Positions 6,785 through 61,628 of a DNA stretch of 64,000 bases are shown here, one piece after another. Each line of letters opens with the position of its first letter. The first letter of the stretch is position 1. The translations under genes were made by a program, and so were the position numbers. The stretch comes from a virus. The stretch lies in the IMG/VR virus record IMGVR_UViG_3300047562_003246, positions 32,001 through 96,000 of that record. One strand, written 5' to 3'. The notes under the pieces were generated by a model. It was not told the origin of the DNA, did no database searches, and was given only the letters and a program-made list of their open reading frames with translations.

Positions 6785-7162
6785 ATGGGTTTCACGACAT
6801 GTAACGGTTATTCTCGCAGAGACTTAATCATACACTTGATGTCTGATAGTCCGCAGGATAAGTACATCGCTATCAACAAGTACACAAGTGGTAACGACTT
6901 ATGGGTCGTCATGCAAAGGCGTGATGCGCAGGATCCTACAAACGCCGATAGATACATCAGGCTGTATAGATTACAGCGAACTAAGGATGGCTGGGGCTAC
7001 AGCGACTATGCAGAAGCAGATTGTCCTTACGTATTTAGCTGTCCGTTGATTTTTCTGGACATTACTTTTCACCAAAACACCGATTGGCGAAAAGGGGTAA
7101 GAGAGTATTGGAAAGCCCGTAAGGAAGCGATGACTACTCGTAGAAAAAGTTCGCCTAGTTGA
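6785..7162 (+). CDS. conserved phage hypothetical protein (DUF6927-like)
   Basis: WGYSDYAEADCPYVFSCPL...WRKGVR pattern; SD aaggag; contains 14-mer copy 1. Confidence 0.65.
   Translation: MGFTTCNGYSRRDLIIHLMSDSPQDKYIAINKYTSGNDLWVVMQRRDAQDPTNADRYIRLYRLQRTKDGWGYSDYAEADCPYVFSCPLIFLDITFHQNTDWRKGVREYWKARKEAMTTRRKSSPS
6926..6939 (+). repeat. dispersed 14-mer GCGCAGGATCCTAC, copy 1
   Basis: Exact match; encodes AQDPT. Confidence 0.95.
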
Positions 7163-7228
7163 CTGGCTGAGCTTGTCGTGCTTTGATGGTAGCTGTGTGT
7201 TGTTTCTTCTTGGCTTTTGGAGTTTGAA

Positions 7229-7432
7229 ATGATTGCAGTACCAGTTAGCATTTCCGAAATTGTTGGTTTGACATTTGAGCAGGCTAAACAGTGGGCGACT
7301 GAGCACAGTTACAGGGTAGTTCCGTCAAGCATTGACGGAGAAGCGACTGTTCTTACGCAGGAATTCGATCCGACGCGGATACAGGTTGCTTTGGTCGATG
7401 GTAAAATCAAGGAAGTAACCAATATCGGTTAG
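7229..7432 (+). CDS. I78 / potato-I-like serine protease inhibitor
   Basis: IVGLT..QA...G..TVLTQEFDPTRIQV...G.I..V..G matches the I78/I13 pattern (T-x-D/E-F-x-P-x-R, terminal G); SD ggag. Confidence 0.65.
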   Translation: MIAVPVSISEIVGLTFEQAKQWATEHSYRVVPSSIDGEATVLTQEFDPTRIQVALVDGKIKEVTNIG

Positions 7433-7473
7433 TGCCTATAAAAGTTAGGCATTCCTACGGCGCTGGTGGGCCG

Positions 7474-7521
7474 AAAGAAGGACGAGTTAAGAAATACTTG
7501 TCCTTCTTTTTTTTTAGCTAT
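7474..7521 (+). terminator. intrinsic terminator ending in T-tract-AGCTAT
   Basis: 14-bp stem aaagaaggacgagt/acttgtccttcttt, T9, AGCTAT. Confidence 0.8.
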
Positions 7522-7586
7522 TAGAGCTTTTGCGTGATTTTGGTAAATTGAGTTAGGGTTTGCTTACAACACAGAAGGACTGAACA

Positions 7587-8036: not shown

Positions 8037-8044
8037 GATGATTT

Positions 8045-8500
8045 ATGTCGGCAGTATTTTTGTTAGCGTTCCCTGAGCAGGATAACGTCGGAGTCTTCTC
8101 CGATGCGTTTCCTGTCTCTGCGCCGCCTCCTGTGTTATTGGCTGCTGCGCTGAATATTCTGCGAGATAGGCTTGTACTGAGTTTCAGCGAAGTAGTTACA
8201 GGAAACACAGTTCCAGTGCTGACATTCTCAGGCGGCGCAGTTACGGCGACATTTGCAAACATTGTCGGAGATACGGTCAGGTTTACCTTAAGTCGCACGA
8301 TTGCCGAAAACGAAACAGGTAGTTTGACGCTCAGCGCAGGATCCTACACTTCGGCTTCTTCAGGGGAGACTAACTCGGCAGCTGCGCTTAGCATCGCAGT
8401 ACCTACGGCGAGAATGAATGCAGACAGGGGTCTGGTGAATTCTCTGTTTCGTAGCCGCATTGTTGAGAGTATTACGGGCGATATTGTAGAGCTAAACTGA
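8045..8500 (+). CDS. Ig-like putative virion protein
   Basis: LVLSFSEVV...TVRFTLSR...LTLSAGSYT Ig-like strand pattern; contains 14-mer copy 2. Confidence 0.55.
   Translation: MSAVFLLAFPEQDNVGVFSDAFPVSAPPPVLLAAALNILRDRLVLSFSEVVTGNTVPVLTFSGGAVTATFANIVGDTVRFTLSRTIAENETGSLTLSAGSYTSASSGETNSAAALSIAVPTARMNADRGLVNSLFRSRIVESITGDIVELN
8334..8347 (+). repeat. dispersed 14-mer, copy 2
   Basis: Exact match; different frame, encodes SAGSY. Confidence 0.95.
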
Positions 8501-8528
8501 AGCTACAGGCTATATTAAATGCTCTTCG

Positions 8529-8557
8529 AGGCGGCTGGTAACCTAGCCGCCTTTTTT
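8529..8557 (+). terminator. intrinsic terminator
   Basis: aggcggct/agccgcct stem followed by T6. Confidence 0.75.
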
Positions 8558-8637
8558 GTTTGTATTCGAGTCTATCTTACGGCTTGTAGAATAGCTATAG
8601 AAGTTTGCGAACGTTAAGCCCTGAATAACAAGCATTT

Positions 8638-9267: not shown

Positions 9268-9282
9268 TTGTAAATACGAAAA

Positions 9283-20064: not shown

Positions 20065-21261
20065 ATGGAACAAGGATTCACATCACTGTCTGCGGGTATC
20101 GCCGAAATCGATCAGGCGGTTACCGATAAAACAACAGCCGATTTGGTGACAAATACAGGTCTCGGTGCTGTTCTGCGTAGGATCCTGCGCACGGTTTACG
20201 AGATAAATCCCGATGTTTCTGGTACCTGTCAGAACTGTTTTTTCTACGGGCAAGGAGCACCTGCTGCTGAGTTAGGCAAAGAAGATGACTGGTATTTGCA
20301 GATCGACACCGGAGACATATGGGCGCATTCCGGTGCAAGTGCACAAAATACGCCTGCTCCCATACCAGTTGATATTGAAGTCATTACCGAAGAAGACTTG
20401 GAAAACTTTTTTGGTAGCTGGGCGAAAACTGGTATCACGCTTAAGGGTCCAACGGGTCCAACTGGATTAACCGGACCCGCAGGAACCAACGGTACTAACG
20501 GAGCTTCAGTCGATGTTCGTATGTCTGGAACAGAACTACAAACAAAATTGACTAATCAGCTGGATACAAGTTACGTAACTAGATTTGATTTTGCAGATAT
20601 TACGCCAGTTGTAACGGTTAGCCCTGATTTAGATCTAAATTACCGTTTAGCTGGCGATGCTCCAGAAGAAGCTGCAACGATATTTGATCTAGCGTCCTTG
20701 ACGCCAAGAATGCGTGTCGATTCTAACAAGCTCCAGTGGAAGCTCACAGTTCAGCCTGACACCGATTATGTAGACGTTCTAAATCTCAATACGATTACGC
20801 CAGTATTTCGTATTGTCAATCGTGATGTGCAGTACAAATATGCTAGCCAAGCCGACAGTAGCTACACGTCTATCGGGGAATTAGATAGCGCTTCACAGTT
20901 AGACGGTGATATTATCCCGGTCAGCGTTGCGCTCAGTAATATTACTCCGGACACAACCCCTGAACAAGTAACAGCAGCAGACCAGCTCGGTGCGATCATA
21001 AAAGGCATCGATAATGCACTGACGCAGGCCCCTTTAAAAATGCGGGCTGTGCAAGTTGACGCGGCTATGGTTACCGCTAGATCGGTGAATTTTTCTGTCG
21101 AGCTTCGTGACCCGGCGAATGCTGTGGTAGTATTAGATGGATCCTTCCGACCAGCTGGACAGGTCTCAGTCAACGCTAACGGCGTAATGACTTGGGCAGC
21201 TGGAGGTGCCTTTGCCAGTGCTATAACTAGCTCAAGCTATGTAATACTGTTCTCTAACTGA
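20065..21261 (+). CDS. tail fibre/whisker-like protein with short collagen repeat
   Basis: GQGAPAAELGKEDDWYLQIDTGDIW motif and (GPT)n run GPTGPTGLTGPAGTNGTNG; contains 14-mer copy 3. Confidence 0.65.
   Translation: MEQGFTSLSAGIAEIDQAVTDKTTADLVTNTGLGAVLRRILRTVYEINPDVSGTCQNCFFYGQGAPAAELGKEDDWYLQIDTGDIWAHSGASAQNTPAPIPVDIEVITEEDLENFFGSWAKTGITLKGPTGPTGLTGPAGTNGTNGASVDVRMSGTELQTKLTNQLDTSYVTRFDFADITPVVTVSPDLDLNYRLAGDAPEEAATIFDLASLTPRMRVDSNKLQWKLTVQPDTDYVDVLNLNTITPVFRIVNRDVQYKYASQADSSYTSIGELDSASQLDGDIIPVSVALSNITPDTTPEQVTAADQLGAIIKGIDNALTQAPLKMRAVQVDAAMVTARSVNFSVELRDPANAVVVLDGSFRPAGQVSVNANGVMTWAAGGAFASAITSSSYVILFSN
20177..20190 (-). repeat. dispersed 14-mer, copy 3
   Basis: Exact match on the - strand; encodes RRILR on +. 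Confidence 0.95.
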
Positions 21262-28010: not shown

Positions 28011-28604
28011 ATGAGCGAACTAGATAAAACGATTGGAACACTTGACGGTTTGAACAGTATTTTGCTTGGTCAAATCGAGAACGGACAGCTGCCCAAGTTT
28101 GCGCAGGATCCTACAACTGCCGGTGCCTACGGTGAACCGATACCGGCGGAAATGGTTCAGCAAGGTGCAACGCAAATGGCACCAGAACCTGGAGCAGCAA
28201 GCGGTATGCCGCCAGAGCAACAAGATCCAATGATGCAGATTGCCGACATGGTCGCTCAGATCGGCCAGCTACTAGAGCAAGGCATGATGCAGATTCTCGA
28301 AGTCTTGACTCGTATGGACGAAACCAATCAGCGGGTCGAGAAACAGTTAGTGCTGATGTCCGGCGCAACACTAGGACAGCAAGCCACGATGGCGGCAAAT
28401 CCGATTGTTCCTCCACCGCCACAAGCAGCAGGACCTGGACCAGCTCAGCCGCAAAAGATGGCAAGCGATGAGATCGAACTTCCTGCTGCACAGCGAGACG
28501 GGCAAATGGCCAAACTCGACAGCGTTGACAGTCTGGGAGAGACGCTTAGAAAAACAAGTAATGTTTTCGAAGCGATCCGAGCGATCAGGGCAAGTGGTGA
28601 GTAA
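28011..28604 (+). CDS. Q/M/P-rich putative head (internal) protein
   Basis: Low-complexity; K-x-A motifs KFAQ and KMAS; contains 14-mer copy 4. Confidence 0.65.
   Translation: MSELDKTIGTLDGLNSILLGQIENGQLPKFAQDPTTAGAYGEPIPAEMVQQGATQMAPEPGAASGMPPEQQDPMMQIADMVAQIGQLLEQGMMQILEVLTRMDETNQRVEKQLVLMSGATLGQQATMAANPIVPPPPQAAGPGPAQPQKMASDEIELPAAQRDGQMAKLDSVDSLGETLRKTSNVFEAIRAIRASGE
28101..28114 (+). repeat. dispersed 14-mer, copy 4
   Basis: Exact match; KFAQDPT. Confidence 0.95.
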
Positions 28605-28819: not shown

Positions 28820-29028
28820 CAAGCCTTCGAATCGTTAAGCCAGTTCCGAAAAATTCAGCAAGAGAGAGTATTGGTCCGGCCAATACTCTTTCGGTTATTA
28901 CTGTCGATGGTAGTCCTGTTGCGTGTGTTGTAGAAAAACGAGCCGTCGCTTCTGTGCTGACTAAAATTAGTAACACATATAAGCTTGATCCGTCGCGAAT
29001 CAAAGTTACTGAGACTCCGATCATATGA
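28816..29028 (+). CDS. small protein coupled to the RNAP gene
   Basis: 70 aa; ATGA overlaps on both sides. Confidence 0.6.
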   Translation: MTSLRIVKPVPKNSARESIGPANTLSVITVDGSPVACVVEKRAVASVLTKISNTYKLDPSRIKVTETPII

Positions 29029-30950
29029 ACGATCCAACACTTGCGCAGCTACGTTTAGCGAGGATACTCCCAAAGGATTTATATCAACCGGGAGACCCGC
29101 TCAATAAAAAAGAGCAACAAAAGATTCTGACGCAAATTGCCAAGAATAATCCAGACAAGTACAAGCAGGTCGTTGAAGCTTTAAACGAAGTAGGTCTTGA
29201 GGTAGCAAGACTCGACGGTACTTCGTCTATTGGTATCGAAGATATCGCGATGCCAGCAAGAGCTAAAGTTCGTCGCACAAAGATGCGAGAACAAATTGAA
29301 AAGATGCTCGATAGTAGTCGAGACAAGCAACTGCCTAGGGCAGATATTCATCGCAAGATCATGGAAGTACTTGCAAAGAATGTAGCTGACGATGTAGAAG
29401 AGATCTATCAAGACTCTAAAGCAGAGAAAAATCCGCTGGCTATCCAAGTAGATAACGCCGGTCGCGGTAATAAGTCTTCGATTGCTGCAATTCGAGGTGG
29501 AGAGCTTGTTGCTAAAGATTCTTACGGAAAGCTTATTCCTATTTTGCTTGACAGGTCTTATTCGCAGGGCTTAACGCCTATGCAGTATATGGCCGGGCAA
29601 GAGGCTGCACGTATCGGCGTGGTCGATACAAAGCTATCTGTTGCCTCGTCTGGTTATGTTAACAAAACAATGTCACAAGCTGTTCACAGACTTGTTGTCA
29701 GCGCTCTTGATGATGAGTCTGCTGTTGGGCGAGGACTTGCTGTACCTACGGATGATCGTGATAACGACGGAGCGGCATTATCTTTCGATTACGGACCCTA
29801 TAAGCGTAATACGATTATCACACCTAAGATTCGTAAAAATCTTATTGAAATGGGTCATGACGAAATTGTCGTTAGAAGTCCCATCGCATCAGGAGCAAAA
29901 GACGGTGGTGTACTTGCCTGGGATTTAGGCGAAAGAAATTACGGGAGACTTCCTGAACTTGGCGAGTACGCAAATTTAGCTGCGTCAAACTCTATCGGTG
30001 AAGCCGTCACGCAGGCTACGCTAAATTCCAAGCACAATTCGAATGTTTCGATGCGAGATATCGAAGCCCTTGATGATGAAAATAGATTTACTCTAAAAGG
30101 CTTTGAGCTTATCGACAGAGTCATCAATCCGTCTGGTGAGCAAAGAGGTTTTGCAGTTCATGCTGAGTCCGATGGACGGGTTGGTTTAATTAGACCTGCT
30201 CCTCAGGGCGGGCATTATGTCATGATCGGGCTTAAACAGCATTACGTGTTACCAGGGTTTAAGATCAACGTAAAGCCTGGAGAAGAAGTTGAAGCCGGTC
30301 AGCAATTAACTGAAGGAATACCTAATCACGCTGCCGTCACAAAACTTCGAGGTATCGGTGAAGGTCGCCGCGCAGTTGTTGAAGCTATGACTAGGGCTCT
30401 TAAGGAAAACGGACAAAAAGGTTACCGCAGAAATCTGGAGATTCTCGCCAGAGGGTTAGTCGATCGTGTGCGTATGACCGACGAGTATGGCGATTTTATT
30501 CCAGATGATGTTGTTCCGTACCATAGACTTGAAGCGACCTGGAAACCGCGAGAAGACAGTTACGAGCTACAAACAGATCGTGCGATCGGAAAGTTCCTCG
30601 AAAAGCCTGTGCTACACTATAGCATCGGAACACCTATCAAACCTTCGATGGTGAAAACTTTACAAAAGCACGGGATTAAAAGCCTAGTAGTTAACGAAGC
30701 AGCTCCTCCGTTTGAACCCACCGTCGTTAGGGCTGTGGATTTAATGCAAACCGACCCCGACTGGATGACAAGGCAGTTGGGCGGTCACGGACGTAGAAGC
30801 TTCGAAGAAGCTGTCATGCGAGGTCGAGATAGCGATACTTCTGGGACTAGTTACGTTGGTTCTCGTGCAGAATTAGTTTCATTCAATCGTGGCAACTCGA
30901 CAGTAAAACTCGATGAACCAGCCCCAGGCACACCAATATTACCGAGATAG
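29025..30950 (+). CDS. rpoC: DNA-directed RNA polymerase beta-prime subunit, C-terminal half (split subunit)
   Basis: SIGIEDIAMP, NPL...AGRGN, GLTPMQY..AARIGVVDTKLSVASSGY (bridge helix), VVRSP, LAASNSIGEAVTQATLNSKH (trigger loop), RNLEILARGL; no NADFDGD in this ORF. Confidence 0.9.
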   Translation: MNDPTLAQLRLARILPKDLYQPGDPLNKKEQQKILTQIAKNNPDKYKQVVEALNEVGLEVARLDGTSSIGIEDIAMPARAKVRRTKMREQIEKMLDSSRDKQLPRADIHRKIMEVLAKNVADDVEEIYQDSKAEKNPLAIQVDNAGRGNKSSIAAIRGGELVAKDSYGKLIPILLDRSYSQGLTPMQYMAGQEAARIGVVDTKLSVASSGYVNKTMSQAVHRLVVSALDDESAVGRGLAVPTDDRDNDGAALSFDYGPYKRNTIITPKIRKNLIEMGHDEIVVRSPIASGAKDGGVLAWDLGERNYGRLPELGEYANLAASNSIGEAVTQATLNSKHNSNVSMRDIEALDDENRFTLKGFELIDRVINPSGEQRGFAVHAESDGRVGLIRPAPQGGHYVMIGLKQHYVLPGFKINVKPGEEVEAGQQLTEGIPNHAAVTKLRGIGEGRRAVVEAMTRALKENGQKGYRRNLEILARGLVDRVRMTDEYGDFIPDDVVPYHRLEATWKPREDSYELQTDRAIGKFLEKPVLHYSIGTPIKPSMVKTLQKHGIKSLVVNEAAPPFEPTVVRAVDLMQTDPDWMTRQLGGHGRRSFEEAVMRGRDSDTSGTSYVGSRAELVSFNRGNSTVKLDEPAPGTPILPR

Positions 30951-33201: not shown

Positions 33202-35741
33202 GAACTACTAGAACATTAACTAATCAGGATCAACAGTTAGTTTCTAAGATTGGACAACTAACTGGCAGGACTCCTGGCAATCTAGTTCGCGGTAAGTCTG
33301 CGCAGCATTTACATGCGATGAGTCGTGTCGCTGGTTCTAGGATCCGCGATCAAATTTCAAGCGGCTTGTCGAAACTCGCAGCTGGACCTAACACTACGCA
33401 GCAATTTAGTGAGTCTTTTGCTGCGATGGCTTTTACGTTTCTTGAAGAGCGTAGTCCAAGCTTGCGAGAATTTATGCTTGGATTTCAAGTAGTTGACAAA
33501 GATGACGAATTAAACACTGCTTTCGGTGTGTTTGGGTTTGAATTACCCAATCGCATTGTGCAATGCCCAGTGTTCTTTGTGCGAGGTCAAATTAAGGGTT
33601 ATCAGGTAATGTTCCTACCTGAGCAGCAATTGTTTTTGCCATCGCATGAAGGTTTCGTACAGCAACTTATCAACAGTGATAATAGCTCGAACGGAGAACC
33701 TGGACCAGTTTGGGGTGACATGTCAACGATGGCAGACCCTGGTGCTGTAGCTGGTCAAATGCCTCGCAGTATCAAGTACGCACAAATTCTTAAAGAGAAT
33801 AGTGCGATGCCGCCTTTGCCTTGGGCGGAAGAAACCAAACTCTACGAGTCTGTCGCTAGCTGGTTTACTGACCCAACAGCGACAAAACAGCTTTCTTCAT
33901 TACTGACAGAGGGTAATTACAAGTCAGCTGCTTGTAGTGCTGACGATGTTTTATCGTTGGGTTCCAGTGTTTTAGAAAGTGCCTTAAGTCTTGCTGTTGA
34001 ATATCCAGCAATGTACAAAGCGATGCGAGGCAGCGAAACGGATCGATTGCAAAAGATTGCTGAAGTCGCCGAGCGTAACGATAGCGAACGAGTCGTCAGT
34101 TCTCGGATTACGTTTGCTGGAGCAGACTTGCCGAAGCTTATCGGTAAGAAGGCGCAGGATCCTACGCAAACCAAAGTTGCTGTATACATTCAGCCTGAGC
34201 CTCCTAGGCTTTTGGACAAGCAATCAAAGGATCAGTATCGAGACAGTATTAGCACGCACGGTATCTACGTCGTAGATAACCGCAGCGAAACTGAAAGAAG
34301 TGTTCTTGAGAAGTTCTCGATTGACGTTGCACAGGACTTTCAGTCTCTCGCACTTACAGAAACAGTAAGTGGCGATGTGCTCATGGAAAACGGCGAAGTC
34401 AAATCTTGTGTGATCGTACCGAAAAATTACGTCATGCAATTTTCGTGGGCGGGCGACCGTACACCAAACATCGTTTTAACATCTGATGGGAAGTCTTTCC
34501 AAGAAACACATGGCAATCCTGTAGTTACTAACGTTAACGAAGAGTCAGCTGCTAATCCTTTGTTGTCGATGGGTTCAACCGGTATGCCAAAGACTCGCGG
34601 AATGTATTTCGCGGTGACACCCAAAGGCAAACTCATCGGACCTTTCTGTTTGCGTAAAAACAGAGACTCAACGGACAAAGGACCGATATCTGTCAGTCGA
34701 TTTAGTCGTATCGATTACATCATGGAAGTCGAAGAGACTGACGAGATATACACAGCGTTTATCGATGGACAGGATTGCGATAATGTACCAATGTCTACGA
34801 GCGCCAATCGAGATAACTGTTTAGTGCTGCCAACAGACACGCGGTATATCAAGATTGATACCGGTAACGATTCGACTCCAAAAGACGAATACGAGTATTA
34901 TTCGCCTAAGCAAAAATCGCCTATCTATCCAGAGACGTACGATACGATCTCGCCAAAGAAGCTTACCGATATCACTTTGTCGATTCGCAAAGAAGCCGAA
35001 GGTTACATTGCAATCGAAAATAAAGTGATCACTGAAAAGATTGCTAAGGCTATCTTGGTCGGCAGTATTGGGTTATCACTTGAAGACGCATCGAAAACTT
35101 TGACAGGTCTGCACACGGGACACCGTCAAAGATTCTTAATCAAGAATGCTGCCACACAGGTGATGCAAAAGCATAATCCTAACGCAGTTTTTCCAATGCT
35201 TGAAGGCCCGGTCGGCGCTAGCGAAGGTAGTCGTGTTCCTTACATAGTTGATAGTCCTGAGTACGCTCAGCAACCTATCGAAACGCCAGCAGAACAGAAC
35301 ATGACTCCGGAAGAAGCTGGATTGCGGGATGCTATGGAAGGGCACCCGACCTCCGGAATGAATCGTGGTCCGATGGCTGCTGATGGAGGCATGTCAATGG
35401 ATCCTGAGATGCAGCAAGTTATGCAGTCAGGCATTGAGGGACCAATGGACATTTCGATTGTTGCTTCTAGCTTAAGTAACGCTCGCGTCGACGGTGCGAT
35501 CACTCAAGCTATCAGGCATTTGCTTGCAGGTATTAGCGAAACAGGACGATTAATCCTGTTGCTTAACGCACAGCGAACAGCTTTTGAAGACATGTATCCA
35601 GAGAACGATATCAAGCCGCTAGAAGATACTCTGCTATCATCGTTTGAAACAGCCGGTGACGCTTACTTGCGTCTGAAGCAAAAAATGGCAATATCTGATC
35701 CAGCTGCAGATGCTGCTGTGCCCTTTGAACACGCGATGTAA
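33198..35741 (+). CDS. large putative head protein
   Basis: 847 aa; FGVFGF...PVFF..G.IKG block; many K-x-A motifs; contains 14-mer copy 5. Confidence 0.7.
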   Translation: MRTTRTLTNQDQQLVSKIGQLTGRTPGNLVRGKSAQHLHAMSRVAGSRIRDQISSGLSKLAAGPNTTQQFSESFAAMAFTFLEERSPSLREFMLGFQVVDKDDELNTAFGVFGFELPNRIVQCPVFFVRGQIKGYQVMFLPEQQLFLPSHEGFVQQLINSDNSSNGEPGPVWGDMSTMADPGAVAGQMPRSIKYAQILKENSAMPPLPWAEETKLYESVASWFTDPTATKQLSSLLTEGNYKSAACSADDVLSLGSSVLESALSLAVEYPAMYKAMRGSETDRLQKIAEVAERNDSERVVSSRITFAGADLPKLIGKKAQDPTQTKVAVYIQPEPPRLLDKQSKDQYRDSISTHGIYVVDNRSETERSVLEKFSIDVAQDFQSLALTETVSGDVLMENGEVKSCVIVPKNYVMQFSWAGDRTPNIVLTSDGKSFQETHGNPVVTNVNEESAANPLLSMGSTGMPKTRGMYFAVTPKGKLIGPFCLRKNRDSTDKGPISVSRFSRIDYIMEVEETDEIYTAFIDGQDCDNVPMSTSANRDNCLVLPTDTRYIKIDTGNDSTPKDEYEYYSPKQKSPIYPETYDTISPKKLTDITLSIRKEAEGYIAIENKVITEKIAKAILVGSIGLSLEDASKTLTGLHTGHRQRFLIKNAATQVMQKHNPNAVFPMLEGPVGASEGSRVPYIVDSPEYAQQPIETPAEQNMTPEEAGLRDAMEGHPTSGMNRGPMAADGGMSMDPEMQQVMQSGIEGPMDISIVASSLSNARVDGAITQAIRHLLAGISETGRLILLLNAQRTAFEDMYPENDIKPLEDTLLSSFETAGDAYLRLKQKMAISDPAADAAVPFEHAM
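34152..34165 (+). repeat. dispersed 14-mer, copy 5
   Basis: Exact match; KKAQDPT. Confidence 0.95.
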
Positions 35742-42023: not shown

Positions 42024-42037
42024 GTAGGATCCTGCGC
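42024..42037 (-). repeat. dispersed 14-mer, copy 6
   Basis: Exact match on the - strand; intergenic, between terminator T9 and ATG 42038. Confidence 0.95.
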
Positions 42038-42310
42038 ATGCCAGCGATCAAGTTGGACGACCATCAGGTTATGCTGTTAAATCGACAATTAAACGCAGTA
42101 CAAATGGAGCAGCAAGCTTTCAACGTACTGGTTGCTTCTTTCCTGTCGTTGGGTGGAATCCACAATCAAAACTTAGAAGATATAAGTTATGACCAAGAAA
42201 ACAGGTGTATCAGCTACCACGTCTCAGGCACTTACAAAGAAAACCAGGAGACCCAAGATCAGCAACAAGGCCAAGAAGATCAAGGCCGAAGAAATCAAAG
42301 CGACCGCTAA
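42038..42310 (+). CDS. small hypothetical protein
   Basis: ATG 42038 directly after the 14-mer, whose AGGA can act as an SD. Confidence 0.55.
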   Translation: MPAIKLDDHQVMLLNRQLNAVQMEQQAFNVLVASFLSLGGIHNQNLEDISYDQENRCISYHVSGTYKENQETQDQQQGQEDQGRRNQSDR

Positions 42311-43444: not shown

Positions 43445-44842
43445 ATGAATTCAGCTGTAAACCAATTAAGTGATGCCACCAAGCGACGGATCGTATCAGC
43501 AATTACGAGCATGACGGATCATTACAAACAAGGCAGTTCACCTAATGAGGCACTTGAAAAAGTAGCAGCCGAATTCGGATTGTTACCTTATCAGCTTCGT
43601 ATTGTCGGTCGAGGTTTTAACTCGGGACAAACGCAGACGGAGCTGTCTCGTGGTCAAACCATTGCAGAGAAGACTGCTGGTGCGTACCCGCTTGCCGATA
43701 TCGAGGGGACGATTAAAAAGATCTACACGGATAGTCCTGTCGCCAAAGCTGCACAGAAATATGTGGATGACGAAGTGTCTCCAGTTTATGCGCAGGATCC
43801 TACAGTTTTGCAATCGAAAGCAGCCAGTGTTGTCTCTTCTCCGAGAAACGCCGAGCCCGTCGACGATGCACCAAGTCGTCCTCCTGTTTGGGTAGCTCCG
43901 CATCTTTATGATGCAGCTGAAAAGACTTCAACAATATTTCAGTTGCGAGACACCATCATCGCAGCTGACAGAGAAGCGGCGGAAGCTGATACAGAAGCTA
44001 GAGTCCAAGAAGCTAGTTTCAAAGAAGCTGTCGCTAAGTACGCTCATGATGTAGACGTACTGCGTGATTTGTTGTTTGACGCTGAAAGGTTCTATGGACA
44101 AGAAGGTACTGAGCTATTTAAACAAGCCCTCGGTAGTTTTGCAGATTCAAGATATTCAAAGCAGATCAAACAGGTTACTGAACTGGGACCTAGTACGCTA
44201 CGAAAAATCGCATCGTCTGATAAGCATCCGGTTATTCAGAAATTGGCTGGCTGTATGGGCTCTAAGAAGAAGAGCAAAAAGAAGTATCTCAAGAAAGTTG
44301 CTCAGCGGATGATCGTAGCTAAGTTGCAGAGAATGATTCTTGGCAAAGAAAAAGTCGCAAGGTGCTATGGCGTAGAGGTAGGTAGCTACGGTCAGCAAGT
44401 TGAATCACATCTCAATAAGTTCGCAACCAACGTGAAGTCCATGCTGGCCGGAATCGCCGCTCATCGAGCTTCCAGTGGGATTGACCCAAATACATCAAAG
44501 TTTCGTGAGGCAGAACTGCAGATCGAAGATCCTGAGCATGAGCAAGCTCTTAGACAAATTCGGTTGCAAGCAACTTTGCAATCCTTACTGAACTACGATC
44601 CGATCGTGCAGTCCTATGATCCTGAAGAAGTGATCGTTGCTTTTAACGAACTCAGTCAAGCTGCCCCGGCCACGCTGGATAATCCTGTAATGCTTCGAGC
44701 AAATCTTCGAAGATTACTTCAAGGAGATATTGCCACGCACGAAGCCAACCAATTGCAATCTGCTGACATCGAACCACGCAAGCTTATTTCTCCGTTAGCC
44801 GCTCAGGTATCCCAAAGCGTTAAGCCAAGTAAAACTGTCTAA
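43445..44842 (+). CDS. K-x-A-rich putative internal head protein
   Basis: 465 aa; KVAA, KAAS, KIAS, KVAQ, KFAT; contains 14-mer copy 7. Confidence 0.7.
   Translation: MNSAVNQLSDATKRRIVSAITSMTDHYKQGSSPNEALEKVAAEFGLLPYQLRIVGRGFNSGQTQTELSRGQTIAEKTAGAYPLADIEGTIKKIYTDSPVAKAAQKYVDDEVSPVYAQDPTVLQSKAASVVSSPRNAEPVDDAPSRPPVWVAPHLYDAAEKTSTIFQLRDTIIAADREAAEADTEARVQEASFKEAVAKYAHDVDVLRDLLFDAERFYGQEGTELFKQALGSFADSRYSKQIKQVTELGPSTLRKIASSDKHPVIQKLAGCMGSKKKSKKKYLKKVAQRMIVAKLQRMILGKEKVARCYGVEVGSYGQQVESHLNKFATNVKSMLAGIAAHRASSGIDPNTSKFREAELQIEDPEHEQALRQIRLQATLQSLLNYDPIVQSYDPEEVIVAFNELSQAAPATLDNPVMLRANLRRLLQGDIATHEANQLQSADIEPRKLISPLAAQVSQSVKPSKTV
43790..43803 (+). repeat. dispersed 14-mer, copy 7
   Basis: Exact match; VYAQDPT. 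Confidence 0.95.
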
Positions 44843-44844: not shown

Positions 44845-46071
44845 ATGAGCAATAGCAATACAGTTAAGTTAGTTGCCAAGTACTATCGGGCTCAAGAAAA
44901 GCGAGCCGGTATGGAACTGTACCAGTTTGTGAAATTTGCTGGTGATAAATTTCAAAAACAACTGGCAACAAATCTTGAGAAAAATGCTTCAAGTAGTCGA
45001 TCTTTCGAGTACCTGCAAAGCGTGCTGCAACAAGCAAAACGAAACATCGAAAAAGCCGCTTTTGATATTCCAGAAGGAATACAGAAGATTAAAGACATTT
45101 CTCAGAATCCAGCTTATGCGGCTTTATTGGGTGGCGGTGCTGGCGGTTTGCTCGGCGCTGGTATCGGCATGGCTACAGGAAATAACACGCTTAGTAAAGC
45201 ACTGCAAGGAGGTATTGCTGGTGCAACGCTGGGCGGTGGTGCATCACTTATTGGTAATTCTTTGTCCGGTAGAGGCGACGGCTATCAAGATGGTATTAAC
45301 CAACTTAATAGCGCTATTTCTGACGCTCAAGAGGCTAACCAAGATACGAACTGGACAGCAAGACTGATGGGTCTAGCTGGTACATCTAAAGCCATGAACA
45401 TGGCTGATAATTTTATGGCTAGAAACGTTCCATCGCAAACGTTTCTAGCTCAGAACATGAATACGACTAGAGATCGAATGGATCTAATCAATCGTCTCGA
45501 AAGCTGGCTTCAAGATGGATCTAGCTCACGTATCGGTGACGAACCTGTAAGAGACTTCGTTGATCTGCTACAGAGAACAGATAAACCTGATGAGATCAAT
45601 AGATTGTTTCGAGACCTATCTAGCGTTGTAAATCAACCGAAGGGTGTTTCGTTAGCTAATCAGCTTTTGCAAAACGCAGGTTTAAGTGAGTCAAGTGCTA
45701 ACATCGATGCGATCATGCGGGCCATGCAAGAATCTCGCGCAGACGGTTTCCAGATCTTACCAGCTAACTTGGTTGACAGGTTGCAAAATCTTACAAACTG
45801 GACATCATCTGCTTTAGGCAAAGGTAACATTTTGCCGCAAGGAAGACTAACTGGAGCAGTTCGAGGTTCGAAAGGTTTAGTCAGCTGGGATGCCTTGAGA
45901 AATGCCAATTCAGCACTGAGCAACCCGTTCTTACGTGGCCGTAGCGGGTTGTACGGTGCTGGTTTGGGTCTTGGCTTATTTGGTCTAGGCGAGCTTATGA
46001 TGGGTAATAATGAGAAGGTCGATACTTCTTTTGACCCAGAAATTTTGGAACGCATTCGATCAAAGTTATGA
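44845..46071 (+). CDS. putative internal/ejection head protein with glycine-zipper segment
   Basis: ALLGGGAGGLLGAGIG...GGIAGATLGGGA glycine zipper; K-x-A motifs in the N-terminus. Confidence 0.65.
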   Translation: MSNSNTVKLVAKYYRAQEKRAGMELYQFVKFAGDKFQKQLATNLEKNASSSRSFEYLQSVLQQAKRNIEKAAFDIPEGIQKIKDISQNPAYAALLGGGAGGLLGAGIGMATGNNTLSKALQGGIAGATLGGGASLIGNSLSGRGDGYQDGINQLNSAISDAQEANQDTNWTARLMGLAGTSKAMNMADNFMARNVPSQTFLAQNMNTTRDRMDLINRLESWLQDGSSSRIGDEPVRDFVDLLQRTDKPDEINRLFRDLSSVVNQPKGVSLANQLLQNAGLSESSANIDAIMRAMQESRADGFQILPANLVDRLQNLTNWTSSALGKGNILPQGRLTGAVRGSKGLVSWDALRNANSALSNPFLRGRSGLYGAGLGLGLFGLGELMMGNNEKVDTSFDPEILERIRSKL

Positions 46072-47570
46072 GCCAATTAATTAAAATCGCTTCACTTTCT
46101 GACTGGGGACTTGGCGACGAGGGAGCTGTCCTAGCCAAGTATTCCAGCTTTGGTCTTAAAAACGGCGACTACAAGCGTATGCAGAAAGTTGCCGGTGAAA
46201 AGTTTGCAGACGCTGCCAGAAACCTTGTCATCGAAGCAGGATTAGAGCCTGTTTATCAGGCAGCGCTGGCTTCTACAGAGTCCCACGGTTACAACCGAAA
46301 TGGCGACGGCTATAGTGCTGCAATGCTGGATAAGTGCGCCAGTACTTTTGTGGATTACGGCAGACTGTATCGCGGACACAATGCCAAAGATCCAAATAAA
46401 AGCTATGGCATCATCAAGCTAGCTCAGTACGATCCACGCATGGGCGTTGTGCACGTTATCGGTGGATTGTTTAAAGACGCCGAAACAGCTAAACGATTTG
46501 GTGGAGGCAATGCAGCGGATAAAGAGCTTGAGCTTCTTGCTAAAAAAGGCAGCTACCCGGTTTCGCAAGGCAGCTCGATCATCGGCGGCGACAAATGCGT
46601 TATCTGCGGCAAGGTGAGTACCAGTAAAAAAGATTACTGCCTACCAAAGACTGCCGGTGGAGTTTGTGATCTGTTCGGTTGTCGTGGTGGTCTTGGTAAA
46701 ATTGCTGATGACGGAAGGCACCAAGCCCTTGATAACCCTAACGGGATATTTCATGACTTATCCAATGTCGACTTCCCGGCAGATCGACAAGCGGCTGCTT
46801 ATCGTATATCACCTGATGAATTTGATAAGCAAGCGAGTTTACACAGATCGCTCGACAAGCAAGCCGGAACTGTCGATCTTGCATCAATGCAAAAACTCGC
46901 GGCAGTTATCCAAGAGACAAGTCAAACAATCCAGTACTTGCCGTCACAAGCAAAAACATATGCTGACGCGGCGATCAAGCTTGCACAGGTCGAAGGACAG
47001 ATTCGACATGAACTAGCCGGTAAGCGAGAAGATGTTCTTGCTTCGTACGCCGGTCTCAAGCAGACAGATGACGTGACGTTACTGGCCAAACATGCTGCGT
47101 CTGATATTGACAGTTATGTAGCTACCGCAGCAAGAATGTCAGCCAACATGGGTGTTTGCGTTTGTCCAATGGCATTCTTCAAGGCGGCTGGACTGTGTGA
47201 TGCGGATATCGCAGCAGCTACAAGTCGAGCCGCAACCTTGTACACAGATCTTGTATCTGATCCAGCAAGAATGCAGTCTGTATGTCAAAAGGCAGCGCAA
47301 GATAGTGTTTATTTGCCTTTGTCCGCTACGGATTACACAGCTCCAACTGAGCTGCCTTTGAATAGTCATGACGTTCGGCGCAGGAGCCTACAAAAAGTAG
47401 CCGAAGGCGAGACTGTTTCTCCGATAATTTTCAGTTCGCCTAGTTTATCGGTAGCTGCGTCAAAGGCACTAGATAAGTACGCTACCTATTCTTTGAGAAC
47501 TTTGGCTACACTTGTTGTATCCAATCCGCAAGTTGCGACTTTTGCGATAGCACAGTCCAACGTATATTGA
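46068..47570 (+). CDS. prohead (capsid maturation) protease with Cys cluster
   Basis: NRNGDGY...LYRGH..KDP.KSYG...PVSQGS (His then Ser, HK97/herpes-like protease pattern), DKCVICG..C..C..C; located upstream of scaffold and capsid. Confidence 0.65.
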   Translation: MSQLIKIASLSDWGLGDEGAVLAKYSSFGLKNGDYKRMQKVAGEKFADAARNLVIEAGLEPVYQAALASTESHGYNRNGDGYSAAMLDKCASTFVDYGRLYRGHNAKDPNKSYGIIKLAQYDPRMGVVHVIGGLFKDAETAKRFGGGNAADKELELLAKKGSYPVSQGSSIIGGDKCVICGKVSTSKKDYCLPKTAGGVCDLFGCRGGLGKIADDGRHQALDNPNGIFHDLSNVDFPADRQAAAYRISPDEFDKQASLHRSLDKQAGTVDLASMQKLAAVIQETSQTIQYLPSQAKTYADAAIKLAQVEGQIRHELAGKREDVLASYAGLKQTDDVTLLAKHAASDIDSYVATAARMSANMGVCVCPMAFFKAAGLCDADIAAATSRAATLYTDLVSDPARMQSVCQKAAQDSVYLPLSATDYTAPTELPLNSHDVRRRSLQKVAEGETVSPIIFSSPSLSVAASKALDKYATYSLRTLATLVVSNPQVATFAIAQSNVY

Positions 47571-52272: not shown

Positions 52273-53112
52273 ATGTCAGATCTTATTCTCCCAGGGCAGT
52301 CCAGCTTAAATGATTGCCCGACTATGCCGCTGGATCTAGGCTACCAAATACCTGCAGGTATATCAGCTACGCTGTGCGTGCCGGACGGACAAAGAGAGCC
52401 TGGCGCATATAAAGCAATCTTTACGCCTGTTACTTGTGGCGGCGAACCCATTGATGTTGATATCGCTATTGACGAAGTTATCGTTGATGACTGTGGATTT
52501 AAAATTCCTGTACCAAACGAAGTTGCCGACAACGTAGGTATTTACAGCGTCGAGTTTGCCAAAATGGTCGACGGAAGACCCTCAGGTATTAAGTCCGCAG
52601 TAATCAGCGTCGAAGAGTCTGCATGGGCGCAGGATCCTACAAAACCAGTCGGGATTACGATCGACCGAATCCGCATGCATATGCGAGATACCGAAGCCGG
52701 TGGTGCTGTAATTGAAGGCTACGAGTATTCCACCAAAGAAATCATCAGCTGCTTACTCAGACCAATCGAGTACTGGAACGACACGCCGCCTCCGAACTCC
52801 ATAAAGTTCAGCTCACCTCAGTCTTTCCCATACACGTACAACTGGATGGAAGCAACGATCTCTTGTTTGCTTAAGATCAGTGCCACTTGGTACCTACGAC
52901 AGAGTAAACGAATGACTTACAGTGGTGGATTAACTACGGATGATCGCGATAAAGCAGACAAGTATTTGGCGCTAGCCATGCAAATGTGGGCCAAATACGA
53001 GATGTTTGTGCAACAAACTAAGTTAGCAATTATCCGCAATCAAGGAATCTATCCGACTCCTAGTGCTTTACCGGTGGCTGACTTCGGTTCTTCCATGCCT
53101 CGAAGGTGGTAA
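52273..53112 (+). CDS. head-tail adaptor (neck) protein
   Basis: Position; IR..MRD.....E.S..EI...WN..PP...K..KY...A pattern; contains 14-mer copy 8. Confidence 0.6.
   Translation: MSDLILPGQSSLNDCPTMPLDLGYQIPAGISATLCVPDGQREPGAYKAIFTPVTCGGEPIDVDIAIDEVIVDDCGFKIPVPNEVADNVGIYSVEFAKMVDGRPSGIKSAVISVEESAWAQDPTKPVGITIDRIRMHMRDTEAGGAVIEGYEYSTKEIISCLLRPIEYWNDTPPPNSIKFSSPQSFPYTYNWMEATISCLLKISATWYLRQSKRMTYSGGLTTDDRDKADKYLALAMQMWAKYEMFVQQTKLAIIRNQGIYPTPSALPVADFGSSMPRRW
52627..52640 (+). repeat. dispersed 14-mer, copy 8
   Basis: Exact match; AWAQDPT. Confidence 0.95.
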
Positions 53113-58024: not shown

Positions 58025-58107
58025 CTGTAGCTGTCAGCGAGTTTATCTCTAAACTTAAGCTAGCTTACGTTAGAATACGTCTTGTTTCTTTTATACAAGG
58101 CGTATTC

Positions 58108-60720
58108 ATGACAAAAAACTCTGATTTCGGCGCAGGGATTATTGACGAAGTTCTATTCGTTATGGCTTCGATTCCTGTCTATGATCCCAACGAACCTTAC
58201 AGTGACGTTTTCGGCTTAAGGGCCTCTGCGGAAAGGTCTACGCTTCCAGACGCACAGCTTGTTACCGGCACTGTTCATTTGGTTTTTCCTTACGTAAGTT
58301 ACGCCAAGCTCCAGGGAGACCATGGTCGCGGTGTTATAAGATGCTTCACAGGTTCGCTAACCCAGGTACCTAACCATCTACAAGCGTTCCATGTGTCTGC
58401 TGACCTAGACACGAATATCGGTACGCTTGTACATAAGACACCGCAAAATAGAATCCTTAGCCGTGACAGCTACAGTGACGTTGTTGTACACGGTTCAGGT
58501 GTAGGATTTTACGCACAAGAAGTTTATCGAAAACAGTTTGATACTTACGACAACTGCGGTGTGCTGGATTTTAATACCGGTGAACCGTTCGATCAGTTAC
58601 CGGGAGATTGGGGACATATTTTCAGTACAGGCGTAGGTATACATGCAGATGAATTGATGTTATTTATGCGTGTGAGCGAGACCTGCGGTGTGTTTGGTTA
58701 TTACATTGATTCGGTTTTGCGTATCGCTGGTGAGCAATTAGAGATAGAGTCCGACGCTCACTTACAGAAATTTGGGAATGACACGGGTGAGCTATATCAG
58801 GAAAGTAGCTATTTTTATACGCCATGGGAGATGCAAGGATTTTTTGATCCCAACTACCAACAGGACAATATCAAAACAAACGATCCAGCTAAGGTTGCCC
58901 GTGAAGGTGGGTTTGTATGGGAACCGAATAACTCAGACCAGAAACAGTTTGCAAGGTTTACCGAATACGGAGGCTATCTCAGTCAAGGAAGCCTACTGGT
59001 TTGTGGAGCAATATCTGAAGATATCAAAGAAATTACACAGTCCGATCTTGAAAAACAAAGTGGACTAGCTAAACAGTATTTTGGTGTCGGTGGTCAAGTA
59101 TTAATCGAGTCAGCTAAACGTATCACTATTGCAAAATCGGCTGTAGGTTATGTTCCTGTAAGAAAACAAAATCCGGACAGTACAGCCGAGGAAGCAGACA
59201 ACCTGGATAACTATAAGTTCAGCGGTGTATTTGGCGAAGGAGATGACCATGTTTATAAGGATCTTCGACCGACTCACGAGGATCCACATATACGTGCTGC
59301 TGGCGATCAAGTTTATGCGATGGATTTGTTTGCCATCGATAGTGCGTATAGCTGCCTACATGTATTTGCACAACATAAAAATGATTTTGCAATTAGCTCT
59401 CCGGCAACGCTTCAAGAAAACGCTGGATTAGATTTTTCTAGTTTATCCTCGTCCGATAGGATATTACCGCCAGCAGGCTCAGATCTACATTTAGATCGCG
59501 ATAAACTGCAAAAGCTTTTTCAGTTGGCTAGCCTAATTCAGCTTACTGACGAGGGCGCAATAATTATTCAGGAAGCTATGGGCGGTAGCATTACGCTCAA
59601 AAACGGTGTAATTACACTCAGCGGTACATCTATTCGATTGCACGGAGGCAAAGCTGTTCATATAGCAGGTGGTAGAGTTATTTCTAGATCTGTACTCGAT
59701 ACTGACATACTGTCAGGACATGGACGTGTTCGCATAAAGTCCGAAAAAGACTTCATGCTTGTGGCTGCATGCGGTGGTACTGGAGGAGTACTTATTGAAA
59801 ATCGCGGAACAGGAGCTACACATAGTTTTCCAGCTGAACCCGATGATATTCAGGTAGCTGGTGTAGTTATTAAAAGTTCAAAGACCCCGTTTCAAGTCTT
59901 ATCTGCCGGGACTTATATTCGTTCTGGTATAGATGCGGCGAAAGTTTCCCCTGGCGATATTATTCTTGACGCTGCTGCTGGTAAGTCAAATATTATTACT
60001 AGATCTTCAGAGATAAATCAATTTGTCTCCTCACATGTTTGGACGTTGTTTGGTACTTCGCCCAATAATATCTCTATAGCAAACGTATCTAACAGTACTT
60101 ACAGTAAATTCGGTGCTTGGCTAGGTATTGACGGTAGTGTTGTTGTTAGCGGAGGTATACAAGCGCAAGACAACATCATTTCAGCCGGGGTTGTTGGTAC
60201 GGCTCAGTATCCGCAGAAAGTCAAAGATGCTGTCAATCAAATGAACAAACAACTAGAAGACGATATCAAACGTTCGAGGGAAGTTTTAACGTCTAGAGTT
60301 GAAGTGCAGTATGAAAAGGCCGGTAAAGCAGGTAATAACACAACAGCTGCCAGTATTAGCTTCGGTTTCCCATCTTCCGATCGCTACAACGCCGGTAAAG
60401 TTGTTTTTGCTGAGCCTTATTGGCAGAAGCTTGTAAATGCGACGAGCAGTAACATCGCTCAAGGCTGGCAAGAACCGGTAGTTAAGTACAAACCCGATAG
60501 AGATAGCCGTGATACTCACGCTTGGCCTGGACAAGAAGCTTGGTCTGAGTCCAAAAACTGGGTAAAGTCAGATGATACAAAAGTTGGGCTGTTTGATGTT
60601 AAAAAGCAAACGCCGAAGCACCCCGTTACAGACAAAGAAAAATATCTTACTGTGATGGAACAAGAAGAGTTACCACTTAAAACCGACACGATTGCAAACG
60701 GACTGAAGTATTTACCATGA
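58108..60720 (+). CDS. baseplate hub/spike (gp5/VgrG-like) protein
   Basis: 870 aa after the tube gene; beta-helix-like run IIIQEAMGGSITLKNGVITLSGTSIRL. Confidence 0.5.
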   Translation: MTKNSDFGAGIIDEVLFVMASIPVYDPNEPYSDVFGLRASAERSTLPDAQLVTGTVHLVFPYVSYAKLQGDHGRGVIRCFTGSLTQVPNHLQAFHVSADLDTNIGTLVHKTPQNRILSRDSYSDVVVHGSGVGFYAQEVYRKQFDTYDNCGVLDFNTGEPFDQLPGDWGHIFSTGVGIHADELMLFMRVSETCGVFGYYIDSVLRIAGEQLEIESDAHLQKFGNDTGELYQESSYFYTPWEMQGFFDPNYQQDNIKTNDPAKVAREGGFVWEPNNSDQKQFARFTEYGGYLSQGSLLVCGAISEDIKEITQSDLEKQSGLAKQYFGVGGQVLIESAKRITIAKSAVGYVPVRKQNPDSTAEEADNLDNYKFSGVFGEGDDHVYKDLRPTHEDPHIRAAGDQVYAMDLFAIDSAYSCLHVFAQHKNDFAISSPATLQENAGLDFSSLSSSDRILPPAGSDLHLDRDKLQKLFQLASLIQLTDEGAIIIQEAMGGSITLKNGVITLSGTSIRLHGGKAVHIAGGRVISRSVLDTDILSGHGRVRIKSEKDFMLVAACGGTGGVLIENRGTGATHSFPAEPDDIQVAGVVIKSSKTPFQVLSAGTYIRSGIDAAKVSPGDIILDAAAGKSNIITRSSEINQFVSSHVWTLFGTSPNNISIANVSNSTYSKFGAWLGIDGSVVVSGGIQAQDNIISAGVVGTAQYPQKVKDAVNQMNKQLEDDIKRSREVLTSRVEVQYEKAGKAGNNTTAASISFGFPSSDRYNAGKVVFAEPYWQKLVNATSSNIAQGWQEPVVKYKPDRDSRDTHAWPGQEAWSESKNWVKSDDTKVGLFDVKKQTPKHPVTDKEKYLTVMEQEELPLKTDTIANGLKYLP

Positions 60721-61628
60721 ACTCTGATTTTATGTCGTCAAGTAGGCCAGCTTCTTTGATCCCAGTCAAAGAGTTATTATCTAACGAGCGAGAAGCCTTG
60801 ACCAAGTTGGGATTAGCACTCGATCAACACGAATACGTGGCAACTGACCTTGCGTCCCGCTTAGACAAAAACCCAGGACTTGATGCGAATCAGGTTAACT
60901 CACTGGCTCTCGATGAATGGAGAGACGAAGATGAGCTATCGACGCTACATCCAGACATCGCAGCTAGTCTGCGTGAAACGCTCGGACAAGAAACAATCAA
61001 AAGTCGTCCGCTTAATGAAATCGTGCAGGATCTTGACGAACAGCCTGATGCGCCTAAAGAAAAAACCGCGCAGGATCCTACAAAACAGGATCAAGAGTCG
61101 ACTGAAGAAGCACTCGCCCAAGTGGTAAGTTCATTAAGTGAGCTGAGAAAGCGGGAGCGAGAGGCGTACCGTAAGCGTGTTAGTGAAGAAGATCGTAATG
61201 CCTTGCTCGAAGAAGCAATGACGGGCAAACAGTTTGAAAAGATATTCAAGCTGCTCAACGGTAAACTAATCATTTGCCTAAGCACAATCACCGCCGAACA
61301 ATCTGACGATATTTCAAAGTATTGTTCAAAACAAGTCAACGTTGTCGGCAGCATGACAACTGATAGTTACCAGATGATGCGGGCTAAGATCAAAGCCGCT
61401 GTCAGACTTAAATACGTTGTCAGTAACGGTAACTTTATGTACCAGCGAGAGGAAGGAAAAGCGGTTGAAGATATTCAGTCGCAGGTTTACAAGACTATCG
61501 CAAACAGTGAAATGTTTAGATTGATGCTTGCAAATTGCGACAAAGAATTCAACATGATCCTCGACTGCATCATGGAGGAGATGACTCGCGATGTTTTTAT
61601 AAATCCCGCGCTAGAAGGCATTGGCTGA
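60717..61628 (+). CDS. tail assembly chaperone (G-like)
   Basis: Two ORFs upstream of the tape measure gene; overlaps a -1 frame ORF; contains 14-mer copy 9. Confidence 0.6.
   Translation: MNSDFMSSSRPASLIPVKELLSNEREALTKLGLALDQHEYVATDLASRLDKNPGLDANQVNSLALDEWRDEDELSTLHPDIAASLRETLGQETIKSRPLNEIVQDLDEQPDAPKEKTAQDPTKQDQESTEEALAQVVSSLSELRKREREAYRKRVSEEDRNALLEEAMTGKQFEKIFKLLNGKLIICLSTITAEQSDDISKYCSKQVNVVGSMTTDSYQMMRAKIKAAVRLKYVVSNGNFMYQREEGKAVEDIQSQVYKTIANSEMFRLMLANCDKEFNMILDCIMEEMTRDVFINPALEGIG
61068..61081 (+). repeat. dispersed 14-mer, copy 9
   Basis: Exact match; KTAQDPT. Confidence 0.95.

Follow-up and report, generated by a model that had tools for sequence, protein, structure and literature searches.

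An evenly spaced 14-bp DNA word dispersed over the genome of an uncultured phage of about 200 kb

Dispersed, invariant words are already known from phage genomes, as the stoperators, the dyad repeats of Cluster O and the sites of programmed nicks, and comparable sites occur on other replicons. The ParB-parS, Noc-NBS and KorB-OB systems use sites of 14-16 bp that are scattered over the replicon and from which the effect of a protein extends over kilobases. The stoperators of Cluster A mycobacteriophages, reportedly described by Brown et al. in 1997 and said to be read by L5 gp71, are asymmetric sites of 13-14 bp present in about 30 copies across the phage genome and read by one phage protein. 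They are mostly intergenic and oriented with transcription, and they belong to temperate phages with an identified repressor. The Cluster O mycobacteriophages (Corndog) carry a 17-bp dyad, TGTTCGG-NNN-CCGAACA, in more than 30 invariant copies genome-wide (PMC4351075). Short invariant words in coding DNA, with few near-cognates and conserved positions, also mark the single-strand interruptions of T5, tf/LUZ24-like and phiKMV-like phages, and the consensus of the T5 major nicks is 5'-R/GCGCRGG-3' (PMC3517423). Here we describe a 14-bp word, GCGCAGGATCCTAC, that recurs in a window of 64,000 nucleotides (bases 32001-96000) of the 185,237-bp IMG/VR virus record IMGVR_UViG_3300047562_003246 (hereafter G000), and in the record as a whole.

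The word of G000 resembles the Cluster O repeats in having tens of invariant copies, many of them in or at the edges of open reading frames (ORFs), with few one-mismatch variants and with no meaning attached to orientation. It is likewise conserved across related phages, with a dyad symmetry that is only partial here, and no reader or function has been assigned to the Cluster O repeats. Those repeats, from siphoviruses of 70 kb, form perfect dyads around a 3-bp spacer, whereas the present sites are strictly asymmetric, belong to a phage of about 200 kb with its own RNA polymerase (RNAP), have a demonstrated even spacing, and have flipped in situ between relatives. The resemblance to the T5, tf and phiKMV interruptions lies in the invariant word within coding DNA, its few near-cognates and its conserved positions; those interruptions are confined to one strand, whereas the sites here are divided 20:10 between the strands. 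The stoperators are similar in length, asymmetry and copy number, but 20 of the 30 copies described here lie in genes, 10 of the 30 oppose transcription, and no repressor was found among the roughly 80 proteins scanned. Unlike parS, the site is not a palindrome, bears no resemblance to the parS sequence and is not accompanied by a detectable ParB_N domain in G000. Unlike Chi, KOPS and DNA-uptake sequences, it shows no orientation bias tied to a translocase or to replication; the two orientation classes are interleaved, and flips occur in situ. What is new is the quantified evenness irrespective of orientation, the conserved asymmetry with a polarity flip in place, and the presence of independent arrays in an uncultured family of phages of about 200 kb. 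Genome-wide arrays of a single exact word are rare, and they indicate proteins whose action spans an entire chromosome.

The word and its spacing

The G000 record is classed as linear and is about 88% complete, for a full phage genome of about 200 kb. A preliminary description of the window, made from its letters without database searches, had listed nine exact copies of GCGCAGGATCCTAC, and all nine were recovered at the same places and on the same strands. The whole record contains 30 exact copies (20 on the + strand and 10 on the - strand, interleaved), for a chance expectation of about 0.001 (calculated from genome length and word length with equal base frequencies). When up to two mismatches were allowed, the window gave 12 matches, compared with a mean of 0.26 and a maximum of 2 in 100 dinucleotide shuffles. 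One-mismatch variants were limited to two in the record, with the natural forms GCGCAGGAGCCTAC and GCGCAGGATCCTAT. The base 3' of the word was a purine in all nine window copies, as had been noted, and in 29 of the 30 copies genome-wide, and the base 5' of it was A or T in 23 of 30. The three positions beyond the 3' purine are A-rich and the conserved block is sharply bounded; the extended form of the site is W-GCGCAGGATCCTAC-R followed by an A-rich tract.

All 30 copies share one asymmetry. The perfect palindrome GCGCAGGATCCTGCGC has no copy in the genome, and GCGC was never found on both sides of a site, either in G000 or in its relatives. The symmetric 12-mer GTAGGATCCTAC, which consists of two "weak" halves, occurs twice (genome 25181 and 127274), and the symmetric "strong" form GCAGGATCCTGC occurs zero times. 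The word contains GATC together with the common restriction sites of BamHI and HhaI; outside the motif, GGATCC is present at its expected frequency in this phage. An RNA hairpin was rejected as the signal, given that the motif forms no stable hairpin and that both orientations serve equally. The topoisomerase IB word CCCTT and the DnaA box were compared with the motif by eye and did not fit it.

Mapped over both strands, the combined lattice was even. Gaps between the 30 copies ranged from 0.7 to 11.9 kb (mean 6.2 kb), and the coefficient of variation (CV) of the spacing was 0.50, compared with 0.97 for random placement (P < 1e-5; 0 of 100,000 simulations as low). The largest gap, 11.9 kb, was compared with an expected 24 kb (P ~1e-4), and the gap distribution was approximately uniform, with a ceiling near 12 kb. 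Separately, the + and - subsets showed no greater evenness than did random thinnings of all sites (P 0.20 and 0.42, respectively), and the - subset on its own left a gap of 51 kb. Since each subset behaves as a random thinning of one lattice, the function is independent of orientation. The evenness belongs to all sites jointly, which argues against polar mechanisms (Chi, KOPS, promoters and other strand-specific signals), and its indifference to orientation argues for recognition of duplex DNA with an effect over about 6 kb on each side.

Selection on the DNA, conservation and turnover

About 208 ORF-based gene calls were made in G000, of which about 200 lie on the + strand, and the coding density was 93.5%. 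The terminase gene (121255-123192) is one of the few exceptions to this unidirectional arrangement, and the genes of three relatives (G002, G004 and G005) are likewise largely unidirectional. Twenty of the 30 copies lie in genes, where 12 are read as AQDPT, three as AGSY and one as RRIL (+ orientation), three as RRILR (reverse copies), and one falls in a minus-strand ORF. The reading frame is open through every one of them, and some sit mid-gene in large structural genes. The other 10 copies are intergenic or at gene edges, where the reverse word supplies a TAG stop codon, AGGA takes the Shine-Dalgarno position, or the word follows a terminator T-run. Ten of the 30 copies oppose the single direction of transcription, and several reverse copies abut terminators or start codons.

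In order to separate the DNA word from the proteins it crosses, synonymous codons were permuted within each gene, with the proteins and the intergenic DNA left unchanged. A mean of 8.6 copies was left by this shuffle, close to the 10 intergenic or edge copies, which it mostly does not touch. The in-gene copies vanished, and therefore protein sequence and codon usage do not produce those 20. All 12 AQDP peptides in the proteome were encoded by identical codons, though GCG accounts for only 18% of Ala codons. The AQDPT peptides are a by-product of the DNA word, and the sites are under purifying selection at the DNA level. The preliminary description had placed selection on the DNA and not on the peptide, and this holds over the full record, both in the count of 30 against the codon-preserving null and in the use of three frames and both strands. 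It had also proposed a genome-wide signal tolerated in disposable protein segments. About a third of the copies fall in non-coding DNA, which makes up roughly 7% of the genome, and the methyltransferase gene has its copy in a C-terminal extension that is absent from homologues; both observations agree with that proposal. The placements support the view that sites settle where the cost is least, namely in intergenic gaps, stop codons, Shine-Dalgarno positions, terminator flanks, and protein linkers and tails.

Positions of sites are held between related phages. Metagenome contigs L075 and L076, with 71% RNAP identity to G000, carry three to four sites per ~20 kb; these have the form GCGCAGGATCC, to which L075 adds TAC or TGC and L076 adds TTC or CTC. 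The site in the RNAP gene lies at a homologous position in G000, L075 and L076, within the conserved peptide EEPLRRILQLKQ, and the position of the site adjoining the 2H-SAK gene is kept in five phages. Contig L371 (94% amino-acid identity) keeps the window copy at 43790 exactly, with different flanks. Contigs L372-L376 belong to an L075-type phage with 52% identity in the protein that holds the 43790 site. The syntenic 20 kb of this phage contain three sites, 6.1 and 8.5 kb apart, two of which lie at the orthologous codons of the 43790 and 52627 sites. At the 43790 codons the site is present in L372-L376 in the same frame with its polarity flipped (TAT GCG CAG GAT CCT ACA in G000 and TAT TTG CAG GAT CCT GCG C in the relative); the core and the frame are the same and the GCGC arm is on the opposite side. 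The 43790 site is therefore old in place and its polarity is free. The 52627 site is kept at orthologous codons and in the same orientation in L372-L374 and L376. The asymmetry itself is kept in all of these phages. L372 lacks the sites at 34152 and 42024, and its subtilase gene carries at the 3' end a site without counterpart in G000. Sites have therefore been lost and gained between the two phages while the spacing was maintained. With the RNAP-gene, 43790 and 52627 sites at orthologous positions, the conservation in related phages that the preliminary description had put forward as a check is observed.

More distant comparisons gave arrays of other words. A megablast of 6 kb against GenBank phages gave no match, and the nearest isolates were Vibrio phages D181, D148 and D69 and Salmonella phage Arash, with about 28% RNAP identity; a comparable array was not found in the first 100 kb of Arash or of D181, the two examined. 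IMG/VR was searched with an RNAP profile and the best 80 of 117 related stretches were kept, among which most fused-RNAP relatives were phages of 180-225 kb with 30-43% identity. In G002 (190 kb), GGAGACGTCTCC, usually extended to AGTGGAGACGTCTCCACT, is present in 23 copies, 19 of them in genes, and these are evenly spaced (CV 0.47, P 1.5e-4). G001 (181 kb) has 14 copies of GGAGACGTCTCC, with at least 10 sites identical to those of G002 within flanks that are 63-94% identical, and G003 (93 kb) has 11 copies with an identical gap series and is therefore a fragment of the G002 phage. Further arrays were formed by AAAACGTTTT in G008 (219 kb; 18 copies, control 1), by TTAACGTTAA in L173 (18 kb; seven copies, mostly intergenic) and by GCGCAGA-NNN-TCTGCGC in L077 (27 kb; three copies), the last with 63% RNAP identity to G000. 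The words of the sister lineages are perfect palindromes of 12-18 bp, also inside genes, which suggests a two-fold symmetric binder in those lineages. The arrays are specific to a lineage in sequence and alike in density and evenness. The CATGGTGCCGA repeats in L105, L111 and L170, and an apparent repeat in G009-G011, were set aside as a local cluster rather than an array. In L077 and in L078 (25 kb) GGATCC was absent, compared with about six copies expected at 50% GC, which suggests avoidance of a BamHI-type site.

Within the window, six of the nine exact copies are on the + strand and read as AQDPT. They lie at 6926..6939 (inside the 125-aa ORF 6785-7162), 28101..28114 (197-aa ORF 28011-28604), 34152..34165 (847-aa ORF 33198-35741), 43790..43803 (465-aa ORF 43445-44842), 52627..52640 (279-aa ORF 52273-53112) and 61068..61081 (303-aa ORF 60717-61628), and the copies at 28101, 34152 and 61068 stand in the contexts KFAQ, KKAQ and KTAQ. 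The + copy at 8334..8347 is read in another frame as (S)AGSY inside the 151-aa ORF 8045-8500. Of the two reverse copies, the one at 20177..20190 (- strand) lies inside the 398-aa ORF 20065-21261, the strand of which reads RRILR, and the one at 42024..42037 (- strand) is intergenic, in the order terminator hairpin, T-run, motif and ATG at 42038; its AGGA is 8 nt before that ATG, a Shine-Dalgarno-like placement. The frames and the three K-x-A contexts had been given correctly beforehand. The one-mismatch variant GCGCAGGAGCCTAC at 47378..47391 (+ strand), inside the 500-aa ORF 46068-47570, is a decayed or nascent site.

Outside the window, the reverse copy at genome 2113 pairs, as 3' arm (CCTGCGC), with an upstream GCGCAGG as 5' arm in a hairpin that is followed by a T-run (genome 2080-2135); the motif there is co-opted into a structure like an intrinsic terminator. 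The genome copies at 21797 and 74024 immediately follow terminator T-runs.

Candidate readers and rival explanations

We tentatively favour the explanation that the GCGCAGGATCCTAC lattice is a set of docking sites on duplex DNA for a sequence-specific protein encoded by the phage, a reading that may be correct. Such a protein, most likely of phage origin, would read W-GCGCAGGATCCTAC-R on duplex DNA. The 30 copies would form a lattice over the whole genome in which selection keeps at least one site per ~12 kb, each site would serve about 6 kb on either side, and the direction of a site, the gene that holds it and its reading frame would be irrelevant to selection. Docking or loading would be followed by spreading, sliding or bridging over kilobases, in the manner of ParB, KorB and Noc or of a stoperator-bound repressor, and would serve to organise, coat or silence the ~200-kb genome. 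ParB spreading covers distances of the same order as this reach of about 6 kb to each side. A docking lattice explains why the gaps have a ceiling, why orientation does not matter, why the sites are under purifying selection and why sister lineages carry palindromic arrays. What we infer is the nature of the reader (a binding protein, not an enzyme), its origin in the phage and the purpose of the lattice.

Several observations weigh against a docking lattice. The strict asymmetry is unexplained by a simple homodimeric binder, and recognition sites of enzymes, more typically than operator families, have almost no weak variants. A six-frame search for ParB_N (PF02195, E <= 1) gave no match in the 185-kb record, nor in five relatives of which three are 100% complete. 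It was positive in 11 of 14 control genomes, and at ~88% completeness of G000 a gene in its missing part is possible. Comparison of about 80 proteins with Pfam and PHROGs yielded no sequence-specific DNA-binding domain and no helix-turn-helix repressor, and the reader was not found among them. The family does not depend on the feature, since the complete genomes of two relatives, G004 and G005, lack a strong array. Several of the analogues offered in the preliminary description are disfavoured, and the roles in stepwise ejection, packaging or repression that it also suggested are guesses. The lack of ParB_N in G000 and the five relatives speaks against parS, and likeness to Chi, KOPS or DNA-uptake sequences is unlikely in view of the evenness regardless of orientation and of the lack of bacterial enrichment among the matches listed.

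This last result bears on where the reader is encoded. In other IMG/VR contigs GCGCAGGATCCTAC showed single occurrences and no dispersed enrichment. The word was also sought in 185,579 bacterial and archaeal species genomes, where it matched in at least 120 stretches; the first 120 matches listed were single chance matches apart from one contig, with no dispersed enrichment. A signal of the host chromosome, the conservation of which had been put forward as a check, is therefore unlikely among the matches listed, and a phage-encoded reader is the simpler assumption. The metagenome-assembled genome G007, which has high GC content and 32 copies of an 11-mer, was considered as a host and rejected, as the flanks of the copies are unrelated and were read as high-GC coding sequence, and the enrichment of the 11-mer fits codon usage; the 14-mer is present there twice, within a sequence that is itself repeated.

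Individual proteins were also considered as readers. Those shared by G000 and G002 and missing from G004 and G005 (the subtilase, a RecA/UvsX-like protein and a DUF932 protein) included no plausible reader, and a protein of 157 aa, which ends at the conserved site upstream of 2H-SAK, was set aside as it is not basic and has no DNA-binding signature. A 346-aa ORFan (genome 124189-125229) has a Cys cluster, the HUH-like string PHLHVV and the string YLARCIK, and its TAG stop lies inside a reverse copy of the motif; no homologue was found among 5.8 billion proteins, and no reliable fold was predicted for it (predicted local distance difference test (pLDDT) score 37). A basic 113-aa protein is encoded between the closest pair of sites, and its predicted fold is also poor, with a pLDDT of 53.

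The main rival, which the preliminary description had not considered and which we regard as unlikely but worth serious attention, is that the sites are programmed site-specific nicks or transient single-strand cuts made by a phage nickase, probably at the GCGC edge. Such a lattice would relieve torsion or make the DNA more flexible as it is packaged or ejected, or would provide starting points for recombination-dependent replication. The first seven bases of the motif, GCGCAGG, match the T5 word edge to edge in 7 of 7 positions, and T5 is cut at the same edge where conservation of the motif begins. On the T5 minus strand (AY543070), GCGCRGG was found at 9742, 22330, 39740, 78567 and 121273, or 8.0, 18.3, 32.6, 64.5 and 99.6% of the genome. 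Four further copies lie on that strand at 25.5, 69.4, 79.1 and 88.3%. The former five are close to what we take to be the classical major-nick positions. The seven-base match could also be chance, at an estimated probability of ~2e-4 for an edge-aligned match, though several known motifs were compared, and T5 shares only DNA polymerase A with G000 by tblastn, with no homologous nickase in sight. An invariant word with almost no near-cognates and with positions held between relatives is found in tf as well, and a ban on GCGC on both sides would be expected if a doubly cognate site became a double-strand break. A cut on either strand relaxes DNA equally, which fits the orientation-independent evenness, but the described systems are single-strand only (PMC3517423) and the sites here are divided 20:10. 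The G000 genome encodes UvsX/RecA-like, Rad50/Mre11-like and RuvC-like functions that suit this explanation, but the only nuclease-like candidate beside a site is the HUH-like ORFan, with no homologues and a poorly scored fold, and the sister palindromes (12-18 bp) would be turned into double-strand breaks by a symmetric nickase. A more specific form, in which an asymmetric, enzyme-type reader, most likely a nickase that shares or descends from the T5 GCGCRGG specificity, acts at ~30 sites no more than 12 kb apart on either strand, is doubtful. Selection would then forbid the doubly cognate palindrome that breaks the chromosome, and sister lineages would have re-invented the lattice with other words. 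If this were true, a nick (or loading) lattice with even spacing and sites on both strands would be known for the first time, and the 50-year-old question of the purpose of phage nicks could be approached through it; should the sites be nicks, the fused-RNAP family could be linked by the shared word to the long-unexplained nicks of T5.

The remaining explanations are less probable. We regard as improbable a mark of self-identity or processing, either a target of covalent modification or a Chi-like stop or attenuation signal for a translocating nuclease or motor, by which the phage genome rather than host DNA would be spared, or treated properly, over a limited range of scanning. Approximately uniform gaps with a hard ceiling near 12 kb do fit a processive scanner of limited range, the word forms no dispersed signal in bacterial genomes among the matches listed, a D12-class adenine methyltransferase is conserved beside the RNAP module in G000 and L075-L078, and GATC lies within the motif. 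Recognition of the Chi type is directional, however, yet each orientation class alone is uneven; the sister cores GACGTC and AACGTT share no methyltransferase target with GATC; and the methyltransferase was not detected by tblastn in G002, G004 and G005. We know of no methyltransferase specific for 14 bp, which also counts against such a mark. A transcription signal (promoter, pause or terminator) for the multisubunit RNAP of the phage is very improbable. It would suit a genome with nearly all genes on one strand and a fused beta/beta' RNAP of its own, the purine after 29 of 30 copies, and the reverse copies that abut terminators or start codons, but the third of the copies that point against transcription take an equal share in the even spacing, two thirds of the copies are in genes, some of them in the middle of large structural genes, a flip of polarity is seen in situ at an orthologous codon, and the sister arrays are perfect palindromes within genes. 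Hardly any credence can be given to an assembly or adapter artefact or to a neutral or selfish short repeat without function. Identical copies that contain BamHI and HhaI sites could raise that suspicion, but a 14-bp insertion would shift the frame and the frames are open through all in-gene copies, the same sites recur with diverged flanks in independent assemblies from other samples, and even spacing and positional conservation oppose neutral spread. The spacing ceiling, the independence from orientation, the strict asymmetry with its flips in place and the independent arrays of sister lineages turn the vague idea of a binding site into testable alternatives, namely a docking lattice, a nick lattice and a modification mark, and the motif gives exact probes for pull-down, nick mapping and methylome work.

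The phage and its other proteins

Few proteins of G000 match known families. In addition to the fused beta/beta' RNAP (genome 170093-174508), matches were obtained for a PolA with a UDG-like domain, a GpA-type terminase (minus strand), Rad50/Mre11-like proteins, a RecA/UvsX-like protein and a RuvC-like function. No repressor or integrase was seen in G000, and PHROGs gave no match for ten structural proteins. A subtilase (Peptidase_S8, E 6e-43) is encoded in the head-gene module at window 36656-37735 and may be the prohead protease; it is kept in L372-L375 and G002 and was not detected in G004 and G005.

At window 29025-30947, among structural genes, lies a second beta'-like protein of 641 aa with an RNA_pol_Rpb1_5 domain, which may be a virion-associated polymerase subunit. 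It has counterparts with 38-41% identity in G002, G004 and G005. LAGLIDADG-type intein domains occur within the fused RNAP of homologues P0004, P0006, P0010, P0012 and P0013, with products of up to 2,562 aa, and at L078:14893-17811 the fused RNAP gene is split into two ORFs.

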